The notes under the pieces: generated by a model
What the model saw: only the letters and a program-made list of their open reading frames with translations
Database searches by the model: none
Told to the model about the DNA's origin: nothing
Source of the DNA: a virus
Reading direction: 5' to 3' (one strand)
DNA: 64,000 nucleotides
IMG/VR virus record: IMGVR_UViG_3300045988_179859
Shown here: piece after piece, positions 2,764 to 51,481 of the stretch
How positions within the stretch are numbered: position 1 is the stretch's first letter
How the letters are laid out: each line of letters starts with the position of its first letter
Program-made: the position numbers and the translations under genes

Positions 2764-3765
2764 ATGGACATGGTTGAGTTGATTGATATGTATCGAACTA
2801 AATTAGATAGTGATCCTTACAGTTGTTTGCTTTTCGCGTTACAGTTACCGAGTATTTGTTCACGAATAGAATATCCTAAAGATTCATCGTTCGATTTTGG
2901 TTTTTATAAAGGCGATAATCGTGTCGATGATGGAAGTTTATATAAAGTTTGGTTGTATAATCATATTGATTCTTTTAAATCTTTATTTTGTCCGCGGATT
3001 GATGTTAATTCGTTTATCAACGATATTTATAAATTGAGATGCAAATTAACGCATACGGGCATTTTATGTGATGATGATTGTCAAAGTGTTGATGCAGAAA
3101 CAACTTTTTATTTTGTTGACAGCCCATATCGAGAAGATGCTAAGTTTGAAAGGGAGGGTAGTTTATTCTTTTTACCATTACCGCAATTTTGTCGAACGAT
3201 GTATAATATTGCGGAAAATGTTATTTTTAGTAATACTATTCCTAACGTAACACCTTATTCTGATCTCTTATTATCGTCTGATGATTTTCATAGAATTCAA
3301 GCCGCGATTCATGTTAAGAATATTGCTGTTTCGGATGCAAGTGATTATGATGATAAAGATTGGTTACTTAAGAATATTTATGATAGATTGTTTGTTGCAA
3401 ATAATCCTTTTGAATTTAGATTAAAATTCATTAAAACAAAGAAGACGGCTAAGGACGCTGATCTTCGAGTATTAGGGTTTAATTCTAATACGAAAGAAGC
3501 TTTCGAAAAATTTTATGCTGAAAACCCTGGTGGTATTTATGAAATTTGGGATTTTTGTAATAAATATGATTGTGTTTTTGATGAAAATGAGTATTTTATT
3601 AAAAAGAAATATGATGAAGATAAATCGGAATTTTGTAAAAATTTCAAAAGATCTACAACTGTATTATGTTTATCTAAAAAAGATTATGATCGAATGTGCG
3701 AAGTTTGGTCTTCTCTTGATTATTTCGATAGACATTATTCTATGAGTTTGGATGATATTCTATAG
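2764..3765 (+). CDS. hypothetical protein, possible HEPN-like (Rx4H motif LRCKLTH)
   Basis: 333-aa ORF directly downstream of promoter 2701-2728; contains R-x4-H. Confidence 0.55.
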   Translation: MDMVELIDMYRTKLDSDPYSCLLFALQLPSICSRIEYPKDSSFDFGFYKGDNRVDDGSLYKVWLYNHIDSFKSLFCPRIDVNSFINDIYKLRCKLTHTGILCDDDCQSVDAETTFYFVDSPYREDAKFEREGSLFFLPLPQFCRTMYNIAENVIFSNTIPNVTPYSDLLLSSDDFHRIQAAIHVKNIAVSDASDYDDKDWLLKNIYDRLFVANNPFEFRLKFIKTKKTAKDADLRVLGFNSNTKEAFEKFYAENPGGIYEIWDFCNKYDCVFDENEYFIKKKYDEDKSEFCKNFKRSTTVLCLSKKDYDRMCEVWSSLDYFDRHYSMSLDDIL

Positions 3766-3782
3766 CGATTGTTCTAACAAAC

Positions 3783-10608: not shown

Positions 10609-11252
10609 CCCGCAAGAATCCGTGCGACCATTTCATCGTCCGACAGGTCTGCCGTGATGATAATATCTGTATCATATTTTGGAATGTCGTCCAAAGCTGT
10701 TTCTGATACGTGTTCTTCGGCTTCAATTGACGGAACGAATCCGTCACGAGCTTCTAAACGTGCATGGCGAGTTTTTCTGTCAATATTCATATGAACGAGA
10801 ACTGCGCCGTGTTCGTGACAGGCTTCGTATTCGTTCGGGAACCGAACATCGGTAATGATGACCGTGTACGATTGTCTCGTAAGCGAAGCAACTTTATCGA
10901 AAGTCTTGCGAATGAAATATAACGGATCACTCGCACGACGAACGTCACCGTAAAACTGGAATAACTTACGAATTTCCGGTGTCTTTTTATATGCGGAAAC
11001 ATTTGTTAAGTTTTGCGGCAAGATTTCATTGAAAATGGAATCTATGACGTGTTTCGGTAAATCAAACTCGGCACTCAACTCGAGCAAGTCTTTACCTGAT
11101 CGTTTGTGTTTAATTAAACTGTCAATTTCTTCTTTTAAAGCGTCCGCAAAAGAGACGCATTTGACAGGTCCTTCTAAATGGGTAATCAGGAGTCGGGCTA
11201 GATAATCCTTGCCCGATCCCATTTTACCGTAAAGTCCATAGATTTTCGGCAT
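10605..11252 (-). CDS. P-loop kinase, dNMP-kinase-like
   Basis: N-terminal Walker A YGKMGSGKDY; resembles T4 gp1 dNMP kinase and the CoaE family. Confidence 0.65.
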   Translation of the reverse strand: MPKIYGLYGKMGSGKDYLARLLITHLEGPVKCVSFADALKEEIDSLIKHKRSGKDLLELSAEFDLPKHVIDSIFNEILPQNLTNVSAYKKTPEIRKLFQFYGDVRRASDPLYFIRKTFDKVASLTRQSYTVIITDVRFPNEYEACHEHGAVLVHMNIDRKTRHARLEARDGFVPSIEAEEHVSETALDDIPKYDTDIIITADLSDDEMVARILAG

Positions 11253-11263
11253 AATAGTCCTTT

Positions 11264-12919
11264 CTAGTTAGTCGGTGTAGTTTTTACGAAACCACGCACC
11301 GATGCAATGGCACTTCGATCGAAAGTTCGTTTAAGTTTTTCGTCTGCGCCCTTATAGGATGGATCCATAAAGTCTTTGATGTTGTATTTCGTAATTAAGG
11401 GTTCGTCTGCGTCCATCTGATTCGTAATTCGCACACGATCTGTTCGTTGAGATTTGTCTTCTAAGAGACCTGTTTCTTTACCCCAATCGCGAGTGTATTG
11501 TAAGAATTGATTACGACTGTATGTGATACTGTTCGCATTAAATTCCCGCATCCATTCTTTATAGACGGGATAAATAAGTTTAGTTGGAAGAACCGTCCAT
11601 TGAAATACGTCATACATATCGTCCCAGAATTCGAATACGTTGTTGTTTTCTGATTTATATTCAGTTAATAACGATTTTGTCGCTTGAGGAACGATAAAGG
11701 TGTCGAATTGATCCATCTCTAACGCTTTTGATAAAACGTATTCTTTAACAATGGGATCACAAATAAATTGACTTTTAATGTATTTCTTTTCGATACCCTC
11801 GAAAGTGTGATCGAACGGAACCATGACGAGACGACGATAAAAGGAATTCGTTTTATCTCGAAACTTGGGCATACCGTTGATCATTTGAATTGTTACGTGT
11901 TTGACGACAGCCGGATAAGAGTCTTTGTGTTTAGGTTCGATTGAGATATCATCACCTGTGACGGCTGCTTTAAAATCGTCAACGTTATCGATATAAACGC
12001 CAACAGGGTTTTCGTCTGCGATATTTACGACTTTACCAATAAGGTTTCGTTTTTCGAAACGTTTGCTGTAATCGTGAATTTTGAGAGACGAATAGTTTCC
12101 TTGTCCAACAATATTTTTGATGAGTTGTCCATAAGTACCTTTACCGTTGTTTCCTTCGCGTGATACAAACAGGATTGCCTTATTATAAGAATGTCCTGGG
12201 TTGAATGATGCGGCAAGAACTTGCCAGAGCAGTAGTTCTTTTTCTGGATCATGATCTGCGAGTTCACGAATCCATTCATCAACTGTCCAGTCAGAGCCAT
12301 CTGGTTCTTTTAAGACAGGCGTTGTTGTGACTGGTTTATAGTCAGTCTGGATTTTAGAAGTCGCGACAAAGTCAGGTCGAAACGGTTCTAAGGTTTTGGT
12401 TTCTTTATTGAAAATACCGTTATTGACGACAACGTGTGCAGAATCAAGTGATTCGTAAACGACAGGTGCCATCATGGTTACATACGAGAGAATGTTTTTA
12501 CGCATGTTCATTGATAGTGGTTGTTGCAATAGAGAAACGTGAAGTTCGATGAATTCATCACATTCTTCATATAAGCCTAAATTTTTACTATTTGGATCCG
12601 GATTGAACATATAGAGGTTCGTGTCCGTTTTTGAAGATAGCGCAGAGTAGGCAATACGGACGATCGGCAACGTAAATGTCAAAACAAGAGCTAATTCAAA
12701 GTCGGTTAATTTTGCCGGTTCTTTTGAATTGTTCATTGTTGCTAACATTTGTTTGTGAGCTAGGACACCTTTATAAGTATTTCGTAACTCTACGTCGATG
12801 TCGTTCATCGTAGTAATATTGAAGGTACGACTGTTATTGTTTAGATAATCTAGAATATCAGCTAACGTTGGATCTTCTGTCGTCAAACGGATTGGATTTG
12901 TTGATAGTTGCATTACCAA
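11264..12919 (-). CDS. phage/plasmid primase-helicase (P4/D5-family SF3 NTPase)
   Basis: Walker A VSREGNNGKGT, typical of the primase C-terminal/D5 helicase domain. Confidence 0.8.
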   Translation of the reverse strand: MVMQLSTNPIRLTTEDPTLADILDYLNNNSRTFNITTMNDIDVELRNTYKGVLAHKQMLATMNNSKEPAKLTDFELALVLTFTLPIVRIAYSALSSKTDTNLYMFNPDPNSKNLGLYEECDEFIELHVSLLQQPLSMNMRKNILSYVTMMAPVVYESLDSAHVVVNNGIFNKETKTLEPFRPDFVATSKIQTDYKPVTTTPVLKEPDGSDWTVDEWIRELADHDPEKELLLWQVLAASFNPGHSYNKAILFVSREGNNGKGTYGQLIKNIVGQGNYSSLKIHDYSKRFEKRNLIGKVVNIADENPVGVYIDNVDDFKAAVTGDDISIEPKHKDSYPAVVKHVTIQMINGMPKFRDKTNSFYRRLVMVPFDHTFEGIEKKYIKSQFICDPIVKEYVLSKALEMDQFDTFIVPQATKSLLTEYKSENNNVFEFWDDMYDVFQWTVLPTKLIYPVYKEWMREFNANSITYSRNQFLQYTRDWGKETGLLEDKSQRTDRVRITNQMDADEPLITKYNIKDFMDPSYKGADEKLKRTFDRSAIASVRGFVKTTPTN

Positions 12920-12946
12920 TACCTTGACGTTGATACGCCAGCCTTT

Positions 12947-13756
12947 CTATTCAGAGTCATTTTCATTTAATAAAGTAAGAATACTGTTTGCAATGACAGA
13001 TGCTTCGATGTCACCACTTTGACTAAAATCGTGAACAGCTTGAATTAAACGTTCACGTTCATCGCCATTATTTGGAAGCGTTTCGGCTTCAGGCATAAGT
13101 GTGATTGTGACGCCGTGCTGTTCACATAATTGTGAAATGATTTCGTATTCCGGTTTTGAAAATTGATTCGTGAATATAAGAACGAGTTCGTCAACTAAAT
13201 CCGCTTGAATTAAATGACAGAGACGCGTAAATTGTTCACTCTTAAAGGAATGAAGTGGTTCGTTGTTAATTAAGGTTTCGGTTACAACCTTTTTACCGAG
13301 ACGTCGTTCTAACAGGTAACGCGACAATTTAATAAAACCATTCGTAATAGGTATCGGAATTGGTTTGTTAATGATTTGTCCGTTTTCATCAAATTCGCGC
13401 ACGACCGATTGAATGTAAGCGACAATTCGGTGAATTTCCGCCTTACGACCTTTACGTCGACGCATACGATTGAATTCGCTAATTTGACTTAGAGTATATT
13501 TTCGCCAACCGTTTTCCGTGACAGTGCGAGGTGCGAAGTCACCTTCTTTTTCATAACGTTTCAAGGTTTGGATCGAAACCCCTACGAGGTCACCGAATTC
13601 TTTCGGCGATAATAACATTTCTTTTGTTTCTTCCATAGATTTTGAAGCCTGCTTTCTATTTTGTTTGGTAAGATGAGTATAGCAAAAAATTGAAATTTTG
13701 TCAATAGATTGGGGGGTAAAAACACGCAAATTAATTCTGATATTAATTTGATTCAT
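12947..13756 (-). CDS. excisionase/MerR-like HTH protein, possible replication regulator or initiator
   Basis: N-terminal HTH (LLSPKEFGDLVGVSIQTLKRYEKEG); no serine-recombinase YxRVSS motif. Confidence 0.55.
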   Translation of the reverse strand: MNQINIRINLRVFTPQSIDKISIFCYTHLTKQNRKQASKSMEETKEMLLSPKEFGDLVGVSIQTLKRYEKEGDFAPRTVTENGWRKYTLSQISEFNRMRRRKGRKAEIHRIVAYIQSVVREFDENGQIINKPIPIPITNGFIKLSRYLLERRLGKKVVTETLINNEPLHSFKSEQFTRLCHLIQADLVDELVLIFTNQFSKPEYEIISQLCEQHGVTITLMPEAETLPNNGDERERLIQAVHDFSQSGDIEASVIANSILTLLNENDSE

Positions 13757-13799
13757 AGATGTGACTCAATCTATATCAAATTATACACACCCTAATTTT

Positions 13800-13826
13800 C
13801 TTAATTAGAATGATTCTAATTAAGAC
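13800..13826. promoter_or_regulatory. 27-bp perfect palindrome tcttaattagaa-tga-ttctaattaaga (candidate operator)
   Basis: 12-bp arms; lies between the HTH gene start and the iterons. Confidence 0.5.
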
Positions 13827-13843
13827 GTTTTCGGGCAAATTCT

Positions 13844-14131
13844 GTTCCATTTTGTACCACTTTTTTGAATTTTGTGGAACGCTCGAAACGCAACTGGCAG
13901 TAGGTGTTTCGTTACACCCAAAAACACGTTCCACCTACGAGGGGGTCAAACTTTTTATTTATATTTTTTAATTTTTTGTATATTTTGTATATTACTCTTT
14001 TTAAATATATTATATATACACATAAAAAGTGGAACAAGTGGAATAAATCTCGATAGCTCTCACCACGTAAGGGTTTCGGATGTTCCACTTTTTAAAAAAT
14101 CAGTGGAACGCATGTGGAACAAGTGGAACAA
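13844..14131. repeat. candidate replication origin: 9 GTGGAAC/GTTCCAC iterons flanking an AT-rich unwinding element (13950-14025)
   Basis: copies at 13845, 13875, 13928, 14030, 14039, 14083, 14105, 14115 and 14125; three copies phased 10 bp apart. Confidence 0.6.
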
Positions 14132-14145
14132 AAAGATGTTTCAAA

Positions 14146-14409
14146 TTATTTGATTTTCAAAATATGTTTCACATCAATATTTGTTGCGTACTTTTTATTT
14201 TTCGCTGGTTCGTATGACACCTCTACGAGGTCGCCGTGTTTGAGTGTGTAAATAAAGTTCAACAAAGTTTCTTTGTCTTTTGGAATATACATCGAAGCAT
14301 TACAAAAATCGTTCGAGTTTACTCGATGCAAGCGAAGCGATAAGGAGTAGTCTTCTTTTTTATTTTTAATAATACGATTGACACGTACAATTTTAAATGT
14401 ATTTTTCAA
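14146..14409 (-). CDS. hypothetical protein (87 aa)
   Basis: ORF only. Confidence 0.4.
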   Translation of the reverse strand: MKNTFKIVRVNRIIKNKKEDYSLSLRLHRVNSNDFCNASMYIPKDKETLLNFIYTLKHGDLVEVSYEPAKNKKYATNIDVKHILKIK

Positions 14410-15114: not shown

Positions 15115-15342
15115 AATTTTTTACACTTCTTTCTGGATGTTATGTAATCACATCAGAAAACGACCGTGAGAAAATCACGGTCTGTAGTGAATTAACTTGG
15201 TCGTTCTGTAATTAATTATTGACTGATCTTTTATGCTATGCTATAATTATTCTATTAGAAGTCATCGAAGGTGCTATTCGTACAACTAGGTGGCCTTTTT
15301 TTGTAGCCGAATTGTCCTTAAATTTTGCACCTTTTCGATTTT

Positions 15343-15354
15343 TGTGATATAATA
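15343..15354 (+). promoter_or_regulatory. element consensus extended -10 TGTGATATAATA
   Basis: 40 nt upstream of CDS 15394. Confidence 0.5.
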
Positions 15355-15393
15355 AGGCTATCTAAAAATTAGTCACGAAAGGACTCTTATAAA

Positions 15394-16611
15394 ATGTTAG
15401 AATATATTGCCGGCATGGATGTCGGAAACGGATATTTAAAACTAGGTATTAACGATAAAGTAGAAGTATTTCCATCAATTGCTGTGAACCGTTACTCTGT
15501 TCACAATGATTTGAAATTGACGCTTGACGATAGCGCTTCGTTTGCGAATGACGCTTTTAATCAAATGGATGCGTCATTCTCAAGTCCTCTCGTAAACGAC
15601 ACAACGCGTCGTATCTTCGGTAGTCGTGCTCTTGCAAGTGGTGAACCATTAGAAGAATTTGACGTATTCTCGCGTAAGTCAAAAGCCGACGATGATCTGT
15701 CAGGGGTTCTCATTCTAGGGTCTCTTGCAAGTCGTGCTATTCACGATTACTACGCAGAACATAAAGCGTTGCCTACTGAGATTCTTCCCGTAGATGTATG
15801 GCTTTCGACAGCTCTTCCGATTGCCGAATATGAAAAACACCATGCAGATTACGCTCATAAATTGAAAAATAGTGGATCTGCACACCTTGTTACGATTCAT
15901 AATTTTGCGCAAACAATCACTATCGCAATTACTATCAAAGAAGTATATATTGCGAACGAAGGTGAGGCTGCCCAATACGGTTTGCGTCACGCGCAGTCTA
16001 ATTTCCTTGACTTGATCGAAGCTGATGCGAAGAAACGTGCGGTCAATGGTGAATTGGATGATGTGACGGGTTACGATTTGGTGCATGCGGAGAATACTCT
16101 CGGCATCGATATTGGTGAAGGGACTGTCGATTTCGCGGTATTCACTAACGGTAAATTCAACCAAGATGCGTCAACGTCATTCTTGAAAGGATACGGAAAC
16201 GTACTCGAGGCGGCACTTGATCGTTTGATCGAAGAAGGATATACTTACAAGACACGTAAAGAGCTCTCTGAGTTTATCAATAAAGAACCTAGCAAGTTGA
16301 GTCGTAACAAGTATACGCACGTAGCTGGTGTTGTAGACGAAGAATCATATCGTTTCGCACAGCAACTTCGTAATGAGATTTCTAAAATCTATACTCGTGT
16401 GGGTGCAACGAATGAAGTTATTTTCGTATACGGTGGTGGTTCAGGTGGTCTTGAACAACACCTCTATAACGAGATCGTGAATCTTTTGTCTGATTTCAAT
16501 AGCGGTGGAACTCCAATCATTTATTTGAACGCTGCATATTCACGTTTCTTGAACGAACACGGTTTGTATAGTCTTGCAAAAGGTCTATATAATATCGCGC
16601 ATAAAGACTAA
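15394..16611 (+). CDS. actin-like ATPase (ParM/Alp family)
   Basis: phosphate-1 motif GMDVGNGYLK and phosphate-2 motif GIDIGEGTVDF. Confidence 0.8.
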   Translation: MLEYIAGMDVGNGYLKLGINDKVEVFPSIAVNRYSVHNDLKLTLDDSASFANDAFNQMDASFSSPLVNDTTRRIFGSRALASGEPLEEFDVFSRKSKADDDLSGVLILGSLASRAIHDYYAEHKALPTEILPVDVWLSTALPIAEYEKHHADYAHKLKNSGSAHLVTIHNFAQTITIAITIKEVYIANEGEAAQYGLRHAQSNFLDLIEADAKKRAVNGELDDVTGYDLVHAENTLGIDIGEGTVDFAVFTNGKFNQDASTSFLKGYGNVLEAALDRLIEEGYTYKTRKELSEFINKEPSKLSRNKYTHVAGVVDEESYRFAQQLRNEISKIYTRVGATNEVIFVYGGGSGGLEQHLYNEIVNLLSDFNSGGTPIIYLNAAYSRFLNEHGLYSLAKGLYNIAHKD

Positions 16612-49615: not shown

Positions 49616-51481
49616 ATGAAAAGAACGAATGAATATGTAAAAGTTCCAAATGGAACGATGTTTTTCCCTAAGGTCTATTTGACGCGAGACGAAATTACGA
49701 ATATGTACGTTTACGGACACGTGCGTCCAAGTTGGTTTAAGTTGGTGCTTGTTGACGATTCGGAACTCGATGAAATTATAGCCGTAAATAAGCCTCTGAG
49801 ATCGTCTAAGGTTGAGGCATATAATCAGCTTGTCGCTCTCTCAAACGCTCGCTATGACGAAATGAGAGCCGATTTAGAACGTTTTGCAGATGGTTCGTTA
49901 GACTTGATGGATTTGTCGGTGAAATATTGGACTTATTTTAAAGATACTCGTAAGTTGTTTAAAGATGTTTTGACGGATGTCGATGTTGATTTCTTTTGGA
50001 AACAGCATAAAAAGCACAGTCAAAAAGAAACAACGATGCGAATCTATGGCGTAGAGCACACGACGCAGTTGGAGTCTAATCAAGAACTACGCAAGCAAAC
50101 GACTCGTCAAAAATATGGCGTAGATAACGTTATGCAGTTGGATTCTATTAAGCAAAAACAAAAGGAAACAATGCTTGAGAAATACGGTGCTGATCACAAT
50201 TTTAAGTTATCGGATGCGGTACGATCATGGAATAAGCATGTTTATGAGATCTTAAAAGAAGAATGGGCTGATGTTTTTGAAAAGTTAGGTGTTATGTCGG
50301 CACAAGATATTGCGTCCGTTTTGAATTTAAAAAGACGATCTTTTGTTTTATACGGCGACGACGAAATGGCGCTGATCTCTTTGTTAGAAGCGTGGGCGAA
50401 GATTAAAGGCGAACCTGTCGTCTATCCAACTAATGCGATGTTTCGATTAAATATGACGTTTACGTGCCCATGGTTAACACTTTATAGTAAGCGTGGTTTA
50501 GTTTCTGTTCCAGATGCATTTTTGAATACGTCAGCGTCACGTTATGAACAGATGGTTGCGAATTACTTAGACGAACTTGGTGTCGATTACGTTGCGAATC
50601 ATCGTAAGCTATTAAACGGATTAGAACTTGATTTCTATATTCCGTCTAAGAATCTCGCAATCGAAGTCAATCCGAACTGCTCACATAATAGTAATCTTTA
50701 TGCGACAGAACCTGAGCGTGTCTGTTACGGACACGTGCAAGAGGCTTTTTACCACTATAACAAGTACAAGTCAGCCGCTAAGAAGGGCATTACTTTGATT
50801 CACTTGTATGGTTACGATTTAGATCCTGTGGTATTCAACACGCGCACGAAAACACGCATTAAGCAACTTGTGAGTGGCTATTCTGTCCGATTATTTGCGA
50901 GAAACACTGTGATTAAAAAGGCCACGAAGCAAGCGGACAAGAAAAAAGCACGCGAATTTCTTAATGAATATCACGTGCAAGGTGCGAGTAGAGCATCTGT
51001 TTATTATCTAGTTTATAATGATTCTAATTTAGTGGCGGTTGCGTCTTTTGATATGAATAATCGTAATTTTGAATCGGAATTGAAGCGTTTGTGCGTGAAA
51101 CCGGATGTACAAATTGTGGGGCTAACGTCGAAGATTATTGCTCGTTTCTTTAAAGATTACGATATAGAAGAACTTTACAGTTATTCTGATAATAATATCG
51201 GTAATGGTTTGTCTTATCAGAAAGCAGGTGGCGTTTTGGTCAAGGAAACTGGTCCGTCACTCTTATTTAGTTCCTGGACAGATCCGACAGATGTTTATTC
51301 GTGGCAGATTGCGACACCATGGGGCGCGCGCGAGGGATTACTGTCGAAGTACGGTCAATTTGATTCGCAAGAGAAGATTGACCTGTTTGTCGAGACAGAA
51401 TTGCCTCACCGGACAGACGATAAGAAGGGCTATGACAGAATCTATACAGCTGGTTCTAAGCTGTGGTTATTTAAAAGATGA
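49616..51481 (+). CDS. Vsr/DUF559-like nuclease-fold protein with triplicated KYGxxHxxQL module
   Basis: LELDFYIPSKNLAIEVNPNCSH resembles the Vsr/DUF559 core; C-terminal domain paralogous to 55508-57064. Confidence 0.6.
   Translation: MKRTNEYVKVPNGTMFFPKVYLTRDEITNMYVYGHVRPSWFKLVLVDDSELDEIIAVNKPLRSSKVEAYNQLVALSNARYDEMRADLERFADGSLDLMDLSVKYWTYFKDTRKLFKDVLTDVDVDFFWKQHKKHSQKETTMRIYGVEHTTQLESNQELRKQTTRQKYGVDNVMQLDSIKQKQKETMLEKYGADHNFKLSDAVRSWNKHVYEILKEEWADVFEKLGVMSAQDIASVLNLKRRSFVLYGDDEMALISLLEAWAKIKGEPVVYPTNAMFRLNMTFTCPWLTLYSKRGLVSVPDAFLNTSASRYEQMVANYLDELGVDYVANHRKLLNGLELDFYIPSKNLAIEVNPNCSHNSNLYATEPERVCYGHVQEAFYHYNKYKSAAKKGITLIHLYGYDLDPVVFNTRTKTRIKQLVSGYSVRLFARNTVIKKATKQADKKKAREFLNEYHVQGASRASVYYLVYNDSNLVAVASFDMNNRNFESELKRLCVKPDVQIVGLTSKIIARFFKDYDIEELYSYSDNNIGNGLSYQKAGGVLVKETGPSLLFSSWTDPTDVYSWQIATPWGAREGLLSKYGQFDSQEKIDLFVETELPHRTDDKKGYDRIYTAGSKLWLFKR

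Follow-up and report, generated by a model that had tools for sequence, protein, structure and literature searches.

The DNA considered here, hereafter the window, is a 64,000-nucleotide stretch of the IMG/VR virus record IMGVR_UViG_3300045988_179859, and it is identical to sequence in the ENA scaffold ZHAN15-1_SAMEA2738065 scaffold_26 (142,303 bp). Together with the 7,237 bp to its left (L018, 1-7237), the inspected DNA amounts to 71 kb of the 142-kb scaffold. Between positions 11264 and 14129 the window holds a compact module in which two minus-strand genes, one for a helix-turn-helix (HTH) protein and one for a helicase-initiator (Rep), are preceded by a palindrome and by an array of short repeats (iterons) disposed around a segment of very high AT content. 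The array, at 13844-14129, is interpreted here with moderate confidence as a Rep-iteron replication origin, carried by a conjugative plasmid-like element of the oral cavity and of the type described for Staphylococcus aureus pathogenicity islands (SaPIs) and phage-inducible chromosomal islands (PICIs). The roles of the HTH protein and of a neighboring protein with a predicted oligonucleotide-binding (OB) fold, as well as the direction of the replication forks, are much less certain. The features of the module are as follows.

11264 to 12919, minus strand: Rep, a predicted self-loading superfamily 3 (SF3) helicase-initiator with an N-tier/D5_N region, an SF3 ATPase and a C-terminal Pox_D5/winged-helix domain; no primase domain
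12947 to 13636, minus strand: HTH protein of 229 amino acids (aa), with a MerR-type HTH and a degenerate serine-recombinase domain; first gene of the HTH-rep operon
13676 to 13704, minus strand: P1, the promoter from which the HTH-rep operon is read (TTGACA, 17 nt, TG-n-TATACT)
13799 to 13825, no strand: 27-bp palindrome TCTTAATTAGAAT-G-ATTCTAATTAAGA (13+1+13, arms 100% complementary), a candidate site for a dimer of the HTH protein
13844 to 13934: left iteron set, with 13844(-) ATGGAAC, 13854(-) GTGGTAC, 13874(+) GTGGAAC and 13928(-) GTGGAAC
13872 to 14153, plus strand: open reading frame (ORF) of 93 aa over the iterons, not a gene
13939 to 13950: G/C block GAGGGGGTCAAA (TTTGACCCCCTC on the helicase strand), abutting the AT core; no role assigned
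13948 to 14025: AT-rich core, presumed DNA-unwinding element, 91-93% AT
14029 to 14129: right iteron set, with 14029(+), 14038(+, GTGGAAT), 14082(-), 14103(+), 14114(+) and 14123(+)

Counted together with its complement, the heptamer GTGGAAC is present 14 times in the 64-kb window (5.5 occurrences expected from shuffled sequences), and seven exact copies fall inside 13874-14129, an interval of 256 bp for which the chance expectation is approximately 0.02 (P < 1e-12, Poisson estimate). This is the sole non-coding cluster of any 7-mer in the window. When the three copies with a single mismatch (at 13844, 13854, and 14038) are included, the iterons number ten and the repeat unit can be described as a AGTGGAACA-like 9-mer. 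The nine copies counted in the original prediction, which was made from the letters of the window alone, were therefore about right, as was the claim that some of them are phased at approximately 10 bp, the spacing within clusters being 9-11 bp. The segment at 13950-14025 that had been singled out as very AT-rich is indeed 91% AT (93% for 13948-14017), and the top AT-rich 70-mer of the entire window is the segment between the two iteron sets. Four iterons lie to the left of this core and six to the right, with inner and outer pairs inverted about position 13981.5. A common dyad centre at 13981-13982 is shared by the inverted iteron pairs 13931/14032, 13877/14085, 13857/14106, and 13847/14117 (midpoints), leaving the right-side iterons at 14041 and 14126 as unpaired extras; four such pairs arose in only ~0.1% of trials in which ten sites were placed at random (P ~0.001). 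A perfect 14-nt inverted repeat also joins 14023-14036 with 14081-14094. Two further observations concern the same symmetry: the middle iteron pair is part of a longer, 16-nt inverted repeat (13874-13889, GTGGAACGCTCGAAAC, and 14073-14088, GTTTCGGATGTTCCAC; 81% complementary), and on each side of the AT core a spacer of ~46-47 bp is enclosed by two inverted iterons. A scan against Rfam returned sub-threshold, eukaryotic chance matches only and no known RNA family.

Rep matches the Pfam families DUF5906 (the SF3 ATPase; 6e-17), Pox_D5, and D5_N, carries the Walker A motif GNNGKGT, and scores 212.5 bits against TIGR01613, the P4-family phage/plasmid primase model (cutoff 108.7). Its sole relative of solved structure is PriRep5 of SaPI5 (7OLA/7OM0), to which residues 108-513 of Rep align at residues 387-785 of 797 (7OLA, E 5.4e-76). 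That alignment takes in the N-tier, the ATPase, and the C-terminal domain (676-790) of PriRep5 and leaves the primase part outside; the Walker A, Walker B, sensor, and arginine motifs all align and the catalytic motifs are intact. No primase domain was detected in Rep by Pfam, PHROG, or NCBIfam, and only ~70-107 residues precede D5_N. The PHROG profiles named as primases cover Rep in their helicase halves only, phrog_864 for example aligning over profile positions 257-613 of 1064. Of the P4/D5-type primase-helicase that had been predicted, the Walker A motif and the D5_N, DUF5906, Pox_D5, and TIGR01613 relationships are borne out and the primase is not. Nor was a primase found elsewhere, since no ORF of the window that was scanned (those of at least 120 aa plus a few shorter ones) matched a primase family. 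Among the same scanned ORFs no other replication initiator was recognized, the Rep_3, RepA_N, and Rep_1/2/trans families being absent from all of them, which agrees with the earlier view that the module is of neither RepA_N nor rolling-circle type. By comparison with relatives that are 98% identical, translation of Rep probably begins at the ATG at 12913, giving 549 aa rather than 551 aa. The rep stop codon (11264) is separated by only 11 bp from the next gene, which ends at 11252, and the HTH gene stands between rep and the origin region, which is 0.9-1.2 kb upstream.

The module could be compared across four related metagenomic lineages, L005, L011, L001, and L003, the helicases of which are 98, ~90, 83, and 79% identical to Rep, respectively. 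The corresponding HTH proteins are 91% (L005), 77% (L011), and 30-32% (L001 and L003) identical. Gene order is the same in all four, running from an actin-like partition gene through one or two variable genes, a gene of 86-87 aa, ~500 bp of non-coding DNA, the HTH gene, and rep to a deoxynucleoside monophosphate (dNMP) kinase gene and onwards. In each of the four, GTGGAA(C/T) repeats surround a core of 90-96% AT with positions and orientations unchanged, the composition and placement of the core having been measured in L001, L003, and L005. The dyad arrangement is complete in L005 and partial in L011 and L001; in L003 the repeats are decayed and no dyad pair was identified. The G/C block is kept at the same place as TTTGACCCCCT(C/A) in the window, L005, L011, and L001 and partially, as TTTTACCCTCTC, in L003, while the neighboring spacers have diverged. 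The frame of the 93-aa ORF is broken in all four lineages, no gene is called at the iteron site in L001, L003, or L005, and the ORF has no family match, so that its dismissal as spurious in the original prediction is upheld. The C-terminal domain of the helicase is 76-95% identical across the lineages (82-99% over residues 408-480) and is still 76-85% identical in L001 and L003, where the HTH domain of the HTH protein, counted on the alignment, has fallen to ~56%. The palindrome is retained as 12+1+12 in L005 and as 11+1+11 in L011, with diverged flanks, and is missing in L001 and L003. The iteron sequence stays constant and the palindrome is lost where the HTH protein has diverged; read most simply, these alignments link the iterons to the helicase and the palindrome to the HTH protein.

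The Reps of SaPIs are self-loading initiator-helicases in which a C-terminal winged helix recognizes iterons of 5-6 nt, and their origins comprise 6-12 iterons around an AT-rich centre, with at least two per side in opposite directions (PMC9371898). Removal of the C-terminal domain from PriRep5 abolishes origin binding (PMC9371898). As far as sequence can indicate, the iteron and AT architecture at 13844-14129 fits that description of SaPI Rep origins point by point (PMC9371898). The symmetry of the iterons and the intact motifs of Rep also appear to indicate ongoing selection on the module.

Between the iterons and the operon lie its presumptive control elements. P1 fits the consensus at 11 of 12 positions and has an extended -10 element, and both of its hexamers are kept in L005, L011, L001, and L003. 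The 27-bp palindrome is real and perfect, although its position is one base off that given previously (13799-13825, not 13800-13826). It had been proposed as the operator of the HTH protein, an assignment that its co-variation favors, the palindrome being kept where the HTH proteins are 77-91% identical and lost at ~30%; the palindrome nonetheless lies ~95 bp upstream of the P1 -35 hexamer and does not overlap P1, so that part of the proposal sits less comfortably. At 13780-13789, a perfect minus-strand TATAAT, 13 bp downstream of the palindrome, overlaps a single plus-strand sequence that resembles a DnaA box, TTATACACA. L005 and L011 retain this TATAAT, which could belong to a second promoter with its -35 region inside the palindrome.

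The HTH gene is taken as 12947-13636, starting at the ATG at 13636, because P1 lies inside the longer ORF of 269 aa, because the extension is unconserved, and because relatives are called at 224-229 aa. The 40-aa N-terminal extension is frame-broken in the 98% relative (L005) and unconserved in the 77% relative (L011), and the 269-aa ORF was accordingly rejected; the gene start at 13756 that had been assumed gives way to one downstream of the conserved P1. Residues 8-60 of the product form a MerR-type HTH (PF13411, 36.5 bits, cutoff 21.6; PF00376, 33.6 bits, cutoff 28.2). In all five orthologs the best NCBIfam match is NF033518, the transposase of the IS607 family of insertion sequences (IS), at 37.9 bits and thus below the cutoff of 110. 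A tblastn search at E 1e-5 returned nothing; at E 1, annotated IS607 transposases appeared with 22-24% identity over 78-96% of the length and E-values down to 1e-5. A profile search matched the PDB entries 3lhf, 3ilx, and 6dgc, which are IS607-type catalytic-domain structures, and alignment by hhalign of the C-terminal domain alone with IS607 TnpA catalytic domains gave a probability of 92.7% (E 4e-7). The nucleophile motif YxRVSS is replaced by AYIQSV or GYIHAP in all orthologs, and KDRLLRFG by TNQFSKPE or DNQFTDTE with N-Q-F invariant; the catalytic serine, both arginines, and the aspartate are all substituted. An exhaustive HMMER search of the C-terminal domain against 1.8 billion representative proteins recovered its own orthologs and one spurious repeat protein only, and an AlphaFold2 model built from a three-sequence alignment was poor beyond the HTH (predicted local distance difference test score, pLDDT, 53). 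Neither tnpB nor IS ends were found beside the gene, and its position between origin and rep is fixed in five lineages. Judged from these homologies, the HTH protein is a catalytically dead but conserved IS607-TnpA-like DNA-binding protein and a full-length homolog of such transposases. Hallmarks of MerR regulators were not found: the C-terminal domain is resolvase-like and not of the coiled-coil/effector kind, and the P1 spacer is 17 bp, whereas MerR promoters have spacers of 19-20 bp with the operator inside. Of the Xis/MerR-like protein originally proposed, the MerR-type HTH stands above both Pfam cutoffs, and its identity as an excisionase (Xis) or as a classical MerR regulator is ruled out by the IS607-TnpA homology and the resolvase-like C-terminus.

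In the mechanism proposed here, the C-terminal winged-helix domain of Rep would recognize the AGTGGAACA iterons, and the mirror-image iteron sets would seat Rep oligomers to the left and right of the ~80-bp AT core, which would melt; Rep, if it behaves as its homolog does, would load itself as a 3'-5' replicative helicase. Since neither Rep nor the 64 kb encodes a recognizable primase, priming would have to be supplied by the host DnaG or by an unrecognized factor. The dead TnpA-like HTH protein most likely binds the 27-bp palindrome as a dimer, as the co-variation suggests, and in the bound state would control rep expression or else assist or restrain firing. The small OB-fold protein may, tentatively, coat the unwound strands. 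Forks probably leave rightwards only, or another origin dominates replication.

A bidirectional origin that has been used over evolutionary time should show a change in the sign of the strand skew. Here almost every gene, irrespective of its coding strand, has a plus-strand GC skew at third codon positions (GC3 skew) of +0.1 to +0.6, the exceptions being two slightly negative genes in the window (at 15394 and 31268) and, to the left of the window, an IS200/605 element and the adjacent small gene with a T5orf172 domain. Expressed by coding strand, the minus-strand block (3.8-15.1 kb) has a skew of -0.29 and the plus-strand block (15.4-55.5 kb) one of +0.30; the 13 genes of the former block, rep included, lie on the C-rich strand because the plus strand is G-rich throughout. 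The positive skew persists over the 7 kb to the left of the window (L018).

Several observations weigh against the interpretation of the iterons as the origin of this element. The GC3 skew is one-signed over at least 21 kb to the left and 50 kb to the right of the site, at least 71 kb in all, and L001, L003, and the distant elements L008 and L009 show the same uniformity of sign across their homologous sites. With no switch of GC3 polarity at this point, the site is hard to reconcile with a simple principal origin that fires bidirectionally. The site is not directly 3' of rep, as origins are in SaPIs, and the primase is missing from Rep and from the scanned ORFs of the 64 kb. Moreover, the HTH protein is, by analogy, a credible alternative binder of the iterons, since IS607 transposases bind helically phased 9-bp repeats (PMC6188088), and the part of the 142-kb scaffold beyond the inspected 71 kb could hold another replicon. 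From the lack of a skew switch it follows that the module fires unidirectionally or is not the principal origin; rightward-only forks may fit the 40-kb block of co-oriented genes that starts 1.1-1.4 kb to the right.

The second of these possibilities, in which the module is a functional or relic Rep-iteron origin that serves secondarily or conditionally (e.g., for establishment after conjugation) while the main origin lies elsewhere on the element of at least 142 kb, is improbable in our estimate but carries real weight. It draws on the strong uniform skew, found also in related elements, on the fact that only part of the element is visible, and on the Inocles of oral Streptococcus, which are reported with a V-shaped skew that includes an origin and a terminus (PMC12340149). 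The skew is accounted for just as well by unidirectional firing, however, and the 64 kb yielded no other initiator; the module is conserved backbone beside the actin-like partition gene in all lineages, and its iteron symmetry and intact Rep motifs point to ongoing selection. It is unlikely, and slightly more so, that the iterons are bound by the dead TnpA-like HTH protein, instead of or besides the helicase, with the former acting as an origin-recognition or handcuffing factor that recruits the SF3 helicase in the manner of papillomavirus E2 and E1. In the IS607 family, several 9-bp repeats at ~10-bp spacing are bound cooperatively by TnpA dimers, which also bring two DNA ends together (PMC6188088). 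The iterons here, as 9-mers at 9-11 bp spacing, resemble these TnpA sites (PMC6188088), and the protein is a full-length TnpA homolog with a conserved HTH, encoded between origin and rep. What speaks against it as the primary iteron binder is the pattern of co-variation across the alignments: in L001 and L003 the iteron sequence is unchanged despite the divergence of the HTH protein, the helicase C-terminal domain is still conserved, and it is the palindrome that changes with the HTH protein. In addition, the helicase C-terminal domain is necessary for origin binding in the homolog that has been studied (PMC9371898).

Two other explanations dispense with a Rep-driven origin altogether. That the repeats form a partition centromere for the neighboring actin-like (ALP/ParM-type) system, or a mere transcriptional control region, is very unlikely: centromeres are likewise arrays of short repeats, the ALP gene (15394-16611) is 1.26 kb away, and no convincing array lies directly upstream of it, yet two genes intervene between the repeats and the ALP gene, dyad repeats around a core of 91-93% AT are the layout of an SF3-helicase origin and not of parC-type sites, and the helicase alongside is homologous to a known iteron binder. 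The same kind of repeat/AT architecture also occurs on a small plasmid that has a related rep but lacks an ALP gene. Least credible of all is that the repeats are degenerate DnaA boxes of an origin dependent on host DnaA. TGTTCCACA agrees with TTATCCACA at 7 of 9 positions, but most copies agree at only 6 of 9, and the diverged lineages keep GTGGAA(C/T) and never drift to GTGGATAA. With at most one mismatch allowed, boxes of the form TTATNCACA are not enriched (16 in the 64 kb, 18 expected), and only one of them, the near-consensus box at 13781-13789, lies close to the iterons; L011 has not kept it. The reading of 13844-14129 as an origin served by Rep is accordingly preferred over these alternatives. 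A bolder elaboration of it, which we consider speculative and would not expect to hold in full, is that an exapted dead IS607-type transposase binds the palindrome and possibly the phased 9-bp iterons, that filaments or pairing of the TnpA kind load, direct, or handcuff a primase-less SF3 helicase, and that the dyad origin in this way fires in one direction on a plasmid of at least 140 kb.

Two neighboring genes complete the conserved surroundings of the module.

14146 to 14409, minus strand: protein of 87 aa with a predicted OB fold, conserved in all lineages (86-87 aa)
15394 to 16611, plus strand: ALP/ParM-type actin-like partition ATPase, opening the long plus-strand block, 1.26 kb from the iterons

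The end of the 87-aa gene and the outermost iteron are 17 bp apart. The fold of its product, predicted with moderate confidence, is most like the OB domain of PolC, PriB, and SSB/RPA domains, and the protein may, tentatively, be an SSB/PriB-like single-stranded DNA-binding accessory factor of the replicon. A divergent switch in gene orientation occurs at 15.1-15.4 kb, 1.1-1.4 kb from the origin, and no convincing centromere-like array was found upstream of the ALP gene at 15115-15393. The window as a whole is a conjugative plasmid backbone, and it further encodes a MobL relaxase, a type IV (T4) coupling protein, a VirB4-like protein, topoisomerase III, a CHAP/lysozyme hydrolase, a sortase, a GbpC/SSSPR adhesin, a class A penicillin-binding protein (PBP), NrdH, HU, and a dNMP kinase. 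GC content ranges from 34 to 45%, with an average of ~39%. The protein clusters of the module (helicase and HTH protein) have 290-450 members, all of them metagenomic and none from NCBI or UniRef. Taken jointly with the origin claim, and on the strength of its gene content, the element is very probably an uncultured conjugative megaplasmid, ~140 kb or larger, of bacteria of the human mouth. Two side observations concern mobile genes. A 621-aa protein (49616-51481, plus strand), encoded between the region of a ClpB-like AAA+ gene and the T4 coupling protein gene, has a DUF7487 domain and matches homing/HNH endonucleases in PHROG (E 4e-55). Just left of the window, at 4196-6256 of L018, lies an IS200/IS605-type element with a Y1 transposase and a 514-aa ORF; its GC3 skew is near zero, unlike that of its neighbors, which fits a recent insertion.

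Beyond the four close lineages, helicases 40-49% identical to Rep occur in L007-L009, on contigs of up to 290 kb, and in these a non-coding region of 800-860 bp lies upstream of rep.

L008, 4204 to 5000: non-coding region upstream of the distant rep
L009, 4141 to 5000: non-coding region upstream of the distant rep
L007, 3985 to 4792: non-coding region upstream of the distant rep

These regions are AT-rich, those of L008 and L009 containing a core of 89-94% AT, and in none of the three was an HTH gene or a GTGGAAC repeat found. Their repeats are too weak to define iterons, and L007-L009 therefore give no clean test of co-variation; to judge by the arrangement, location of the origin upstream of rep may be a general feature of the wider clade. 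More distant still is the Streptococcus thermophilus plasmid pCNRZ1202B (5.7 kb, NZ_CP065508.1, L016), the helicase of which is 35% identical to Rep and is preceded by a separate primase gene. There, inverted GTTCTCT/AGAGAAC iterons flank an AT-rich stretch directly after rep.

pCNRZ1202B (L016), 2379 to 2721: repeat region, SaPI-type origin
pCNRZ1202B (L016), 3408 to 3773: second repeat array

The second and larger array, of TAGTACACTT/AAGTGTACTAA repeats, lies ~1 kb beyond the origin-type repeats. In a PICI-like island carried by a Latilactobacillus curvatus plasmid, the genes follow the classical order: int, HTH genes, a primase-polymerase (prim-pol) gene, and a helicase gene. The helicase family can be said, from pCNRZ1202B and the L. 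curvatus island, to drive both plasmid and satellite replicons, and to judge from these gene orders a primase gene normally occupies the slot that is held here by the dead transposase. No relative of the helicase turned up in a contig scan of 185,579 species representatives, and phage and plasmid collections yielded no match to the 3.2-kb module at the DNA level.

Members of this element family are plentiful in metagenomes of the human mouth, and the family has no cultured representative. A concrete origin, its initiator, and candidate regulators would amount to a clonable minimal replicon, of use for host identification, for vectors, and for work on copy number. The module would carry the SaPI-type origin, with its self-loading SF3 helicase, beyond small phage satellites and 5-kb plasmids to a conjugative megaplasmid, in a primase-less form of that system. 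It also offers a clear case of a transposase that is without its catalytic residues and yet conserved at a fixed position in a replication operon, and the conflict between a symmetric origin and a one-signed skew is a testable one concerning fork directionality. Should the exapted-transposase reading be true, it would define a new class of replication accessory factor and the first origin and initiator for uncultured giant oral conjugative plasmids.

Among known systems, the closest is that of SaPIs and PICIs, as represented by PriRep5 of SaPI5 and its origin (7OLA/7OM0). The two share a homologous helicase-initiator and iterons (ten here, 6-12 there) on both sides of an AT centre, and in both a separate helicase loader is neither needed nor found. 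They differ in that residues 1-386 of PriRep5 (the primase) and a separate pri gene are missing here, in that the origin lies upstream of a two-gene operon rather than immediately 3' of rep, and in that a dead IS607-like recombinase stands in the pri slot. The context also differs, being a conjugative megaplasmid with partition genes and not a phage-inducible island with an integrase, a Stl-type repressor, and packaging interference, and the skew suggests unidirectional or non-dominant firing. The likeness to SaPI/PICI pri-rep-ori cassettes drawn in the original prediction consequently survives for the helicase homology and for the conserved iteron/AT layout, and falls short with respect to the primase and the place of the origin. 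Small plasmids of lactic acid bacteria such as pCNRZ1202B are similar in their helicase family (35%), in their inverted iterons with an AT stretch, and in being plasmid replicons; in theirs, however, a primase gene overlaps the start of rep, the origin directly follows rep, no HTH/dead-recombinase gene is present, and the size is 5-6 kb as opposed to at least 140 kb here.

In papillomaviruses, the SF3 helicase E1 acts on dyad-symmetric sites around an AT segment, with the dimeric DNA-binding protein E2 at an adjacent palindromic site. The working of the present module may be similar, by analogy, although the accessory proteins have no sequence relationship. The orf56/orf904 operon of the Sulfolobus plasmid pRN1 likewise has a gene for a small DNA-binding repressor followed by one for an SF3-helicase replication protein (PMC4234260). 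It differs in the prim-pol domain of ORF904, in an origin placed downstream of the gene, in a CopG-like repressor, and in its archaeal host (PMC4234260). With TnpA of IS607 elements (NF033518; PDB 6DGB/6DGC, 3LHF, 3ILX) the HTH protein shares full-length homology and the domain order of a MerR-type HTH followed by a serine recombinase, whereas its catalytic serine, arginine, and aspartate residues are replaced, its score is far under the cutoff, tnpB and IS ends are lacking, and its position in an operon is fixed.

The Inocles (PMC12340149) resemble the present element in coming from human oral metagenomes, in being absent from isolate genomes and NCBI, and in encoding a bifunctional transglycosylase/PBP, sortase A, LPXTG adhesins, NrdH, and VirB4/VirD4. 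Their reported GC content is 24-32%, against 39% here, and no ORF of the 64-kb window, which covers only part of the 142-kb scaffold, matched their marker InoC (~454 aa, with PF13814 at the N-terminus); membership in the Inocles was for these reasons not adopted. Inocle origins have been placed by GC skew only (PMC12340149), and this window has no skew switch. What sets the module apart from the systems of its kind, as its sequence would have it, is the combination of a SaPI-type origin that is without a primase and upstream of its operon with an exapted dead IS607 transposase and a palindrome, on an oral conjugative megaplasmid without a skew switch.

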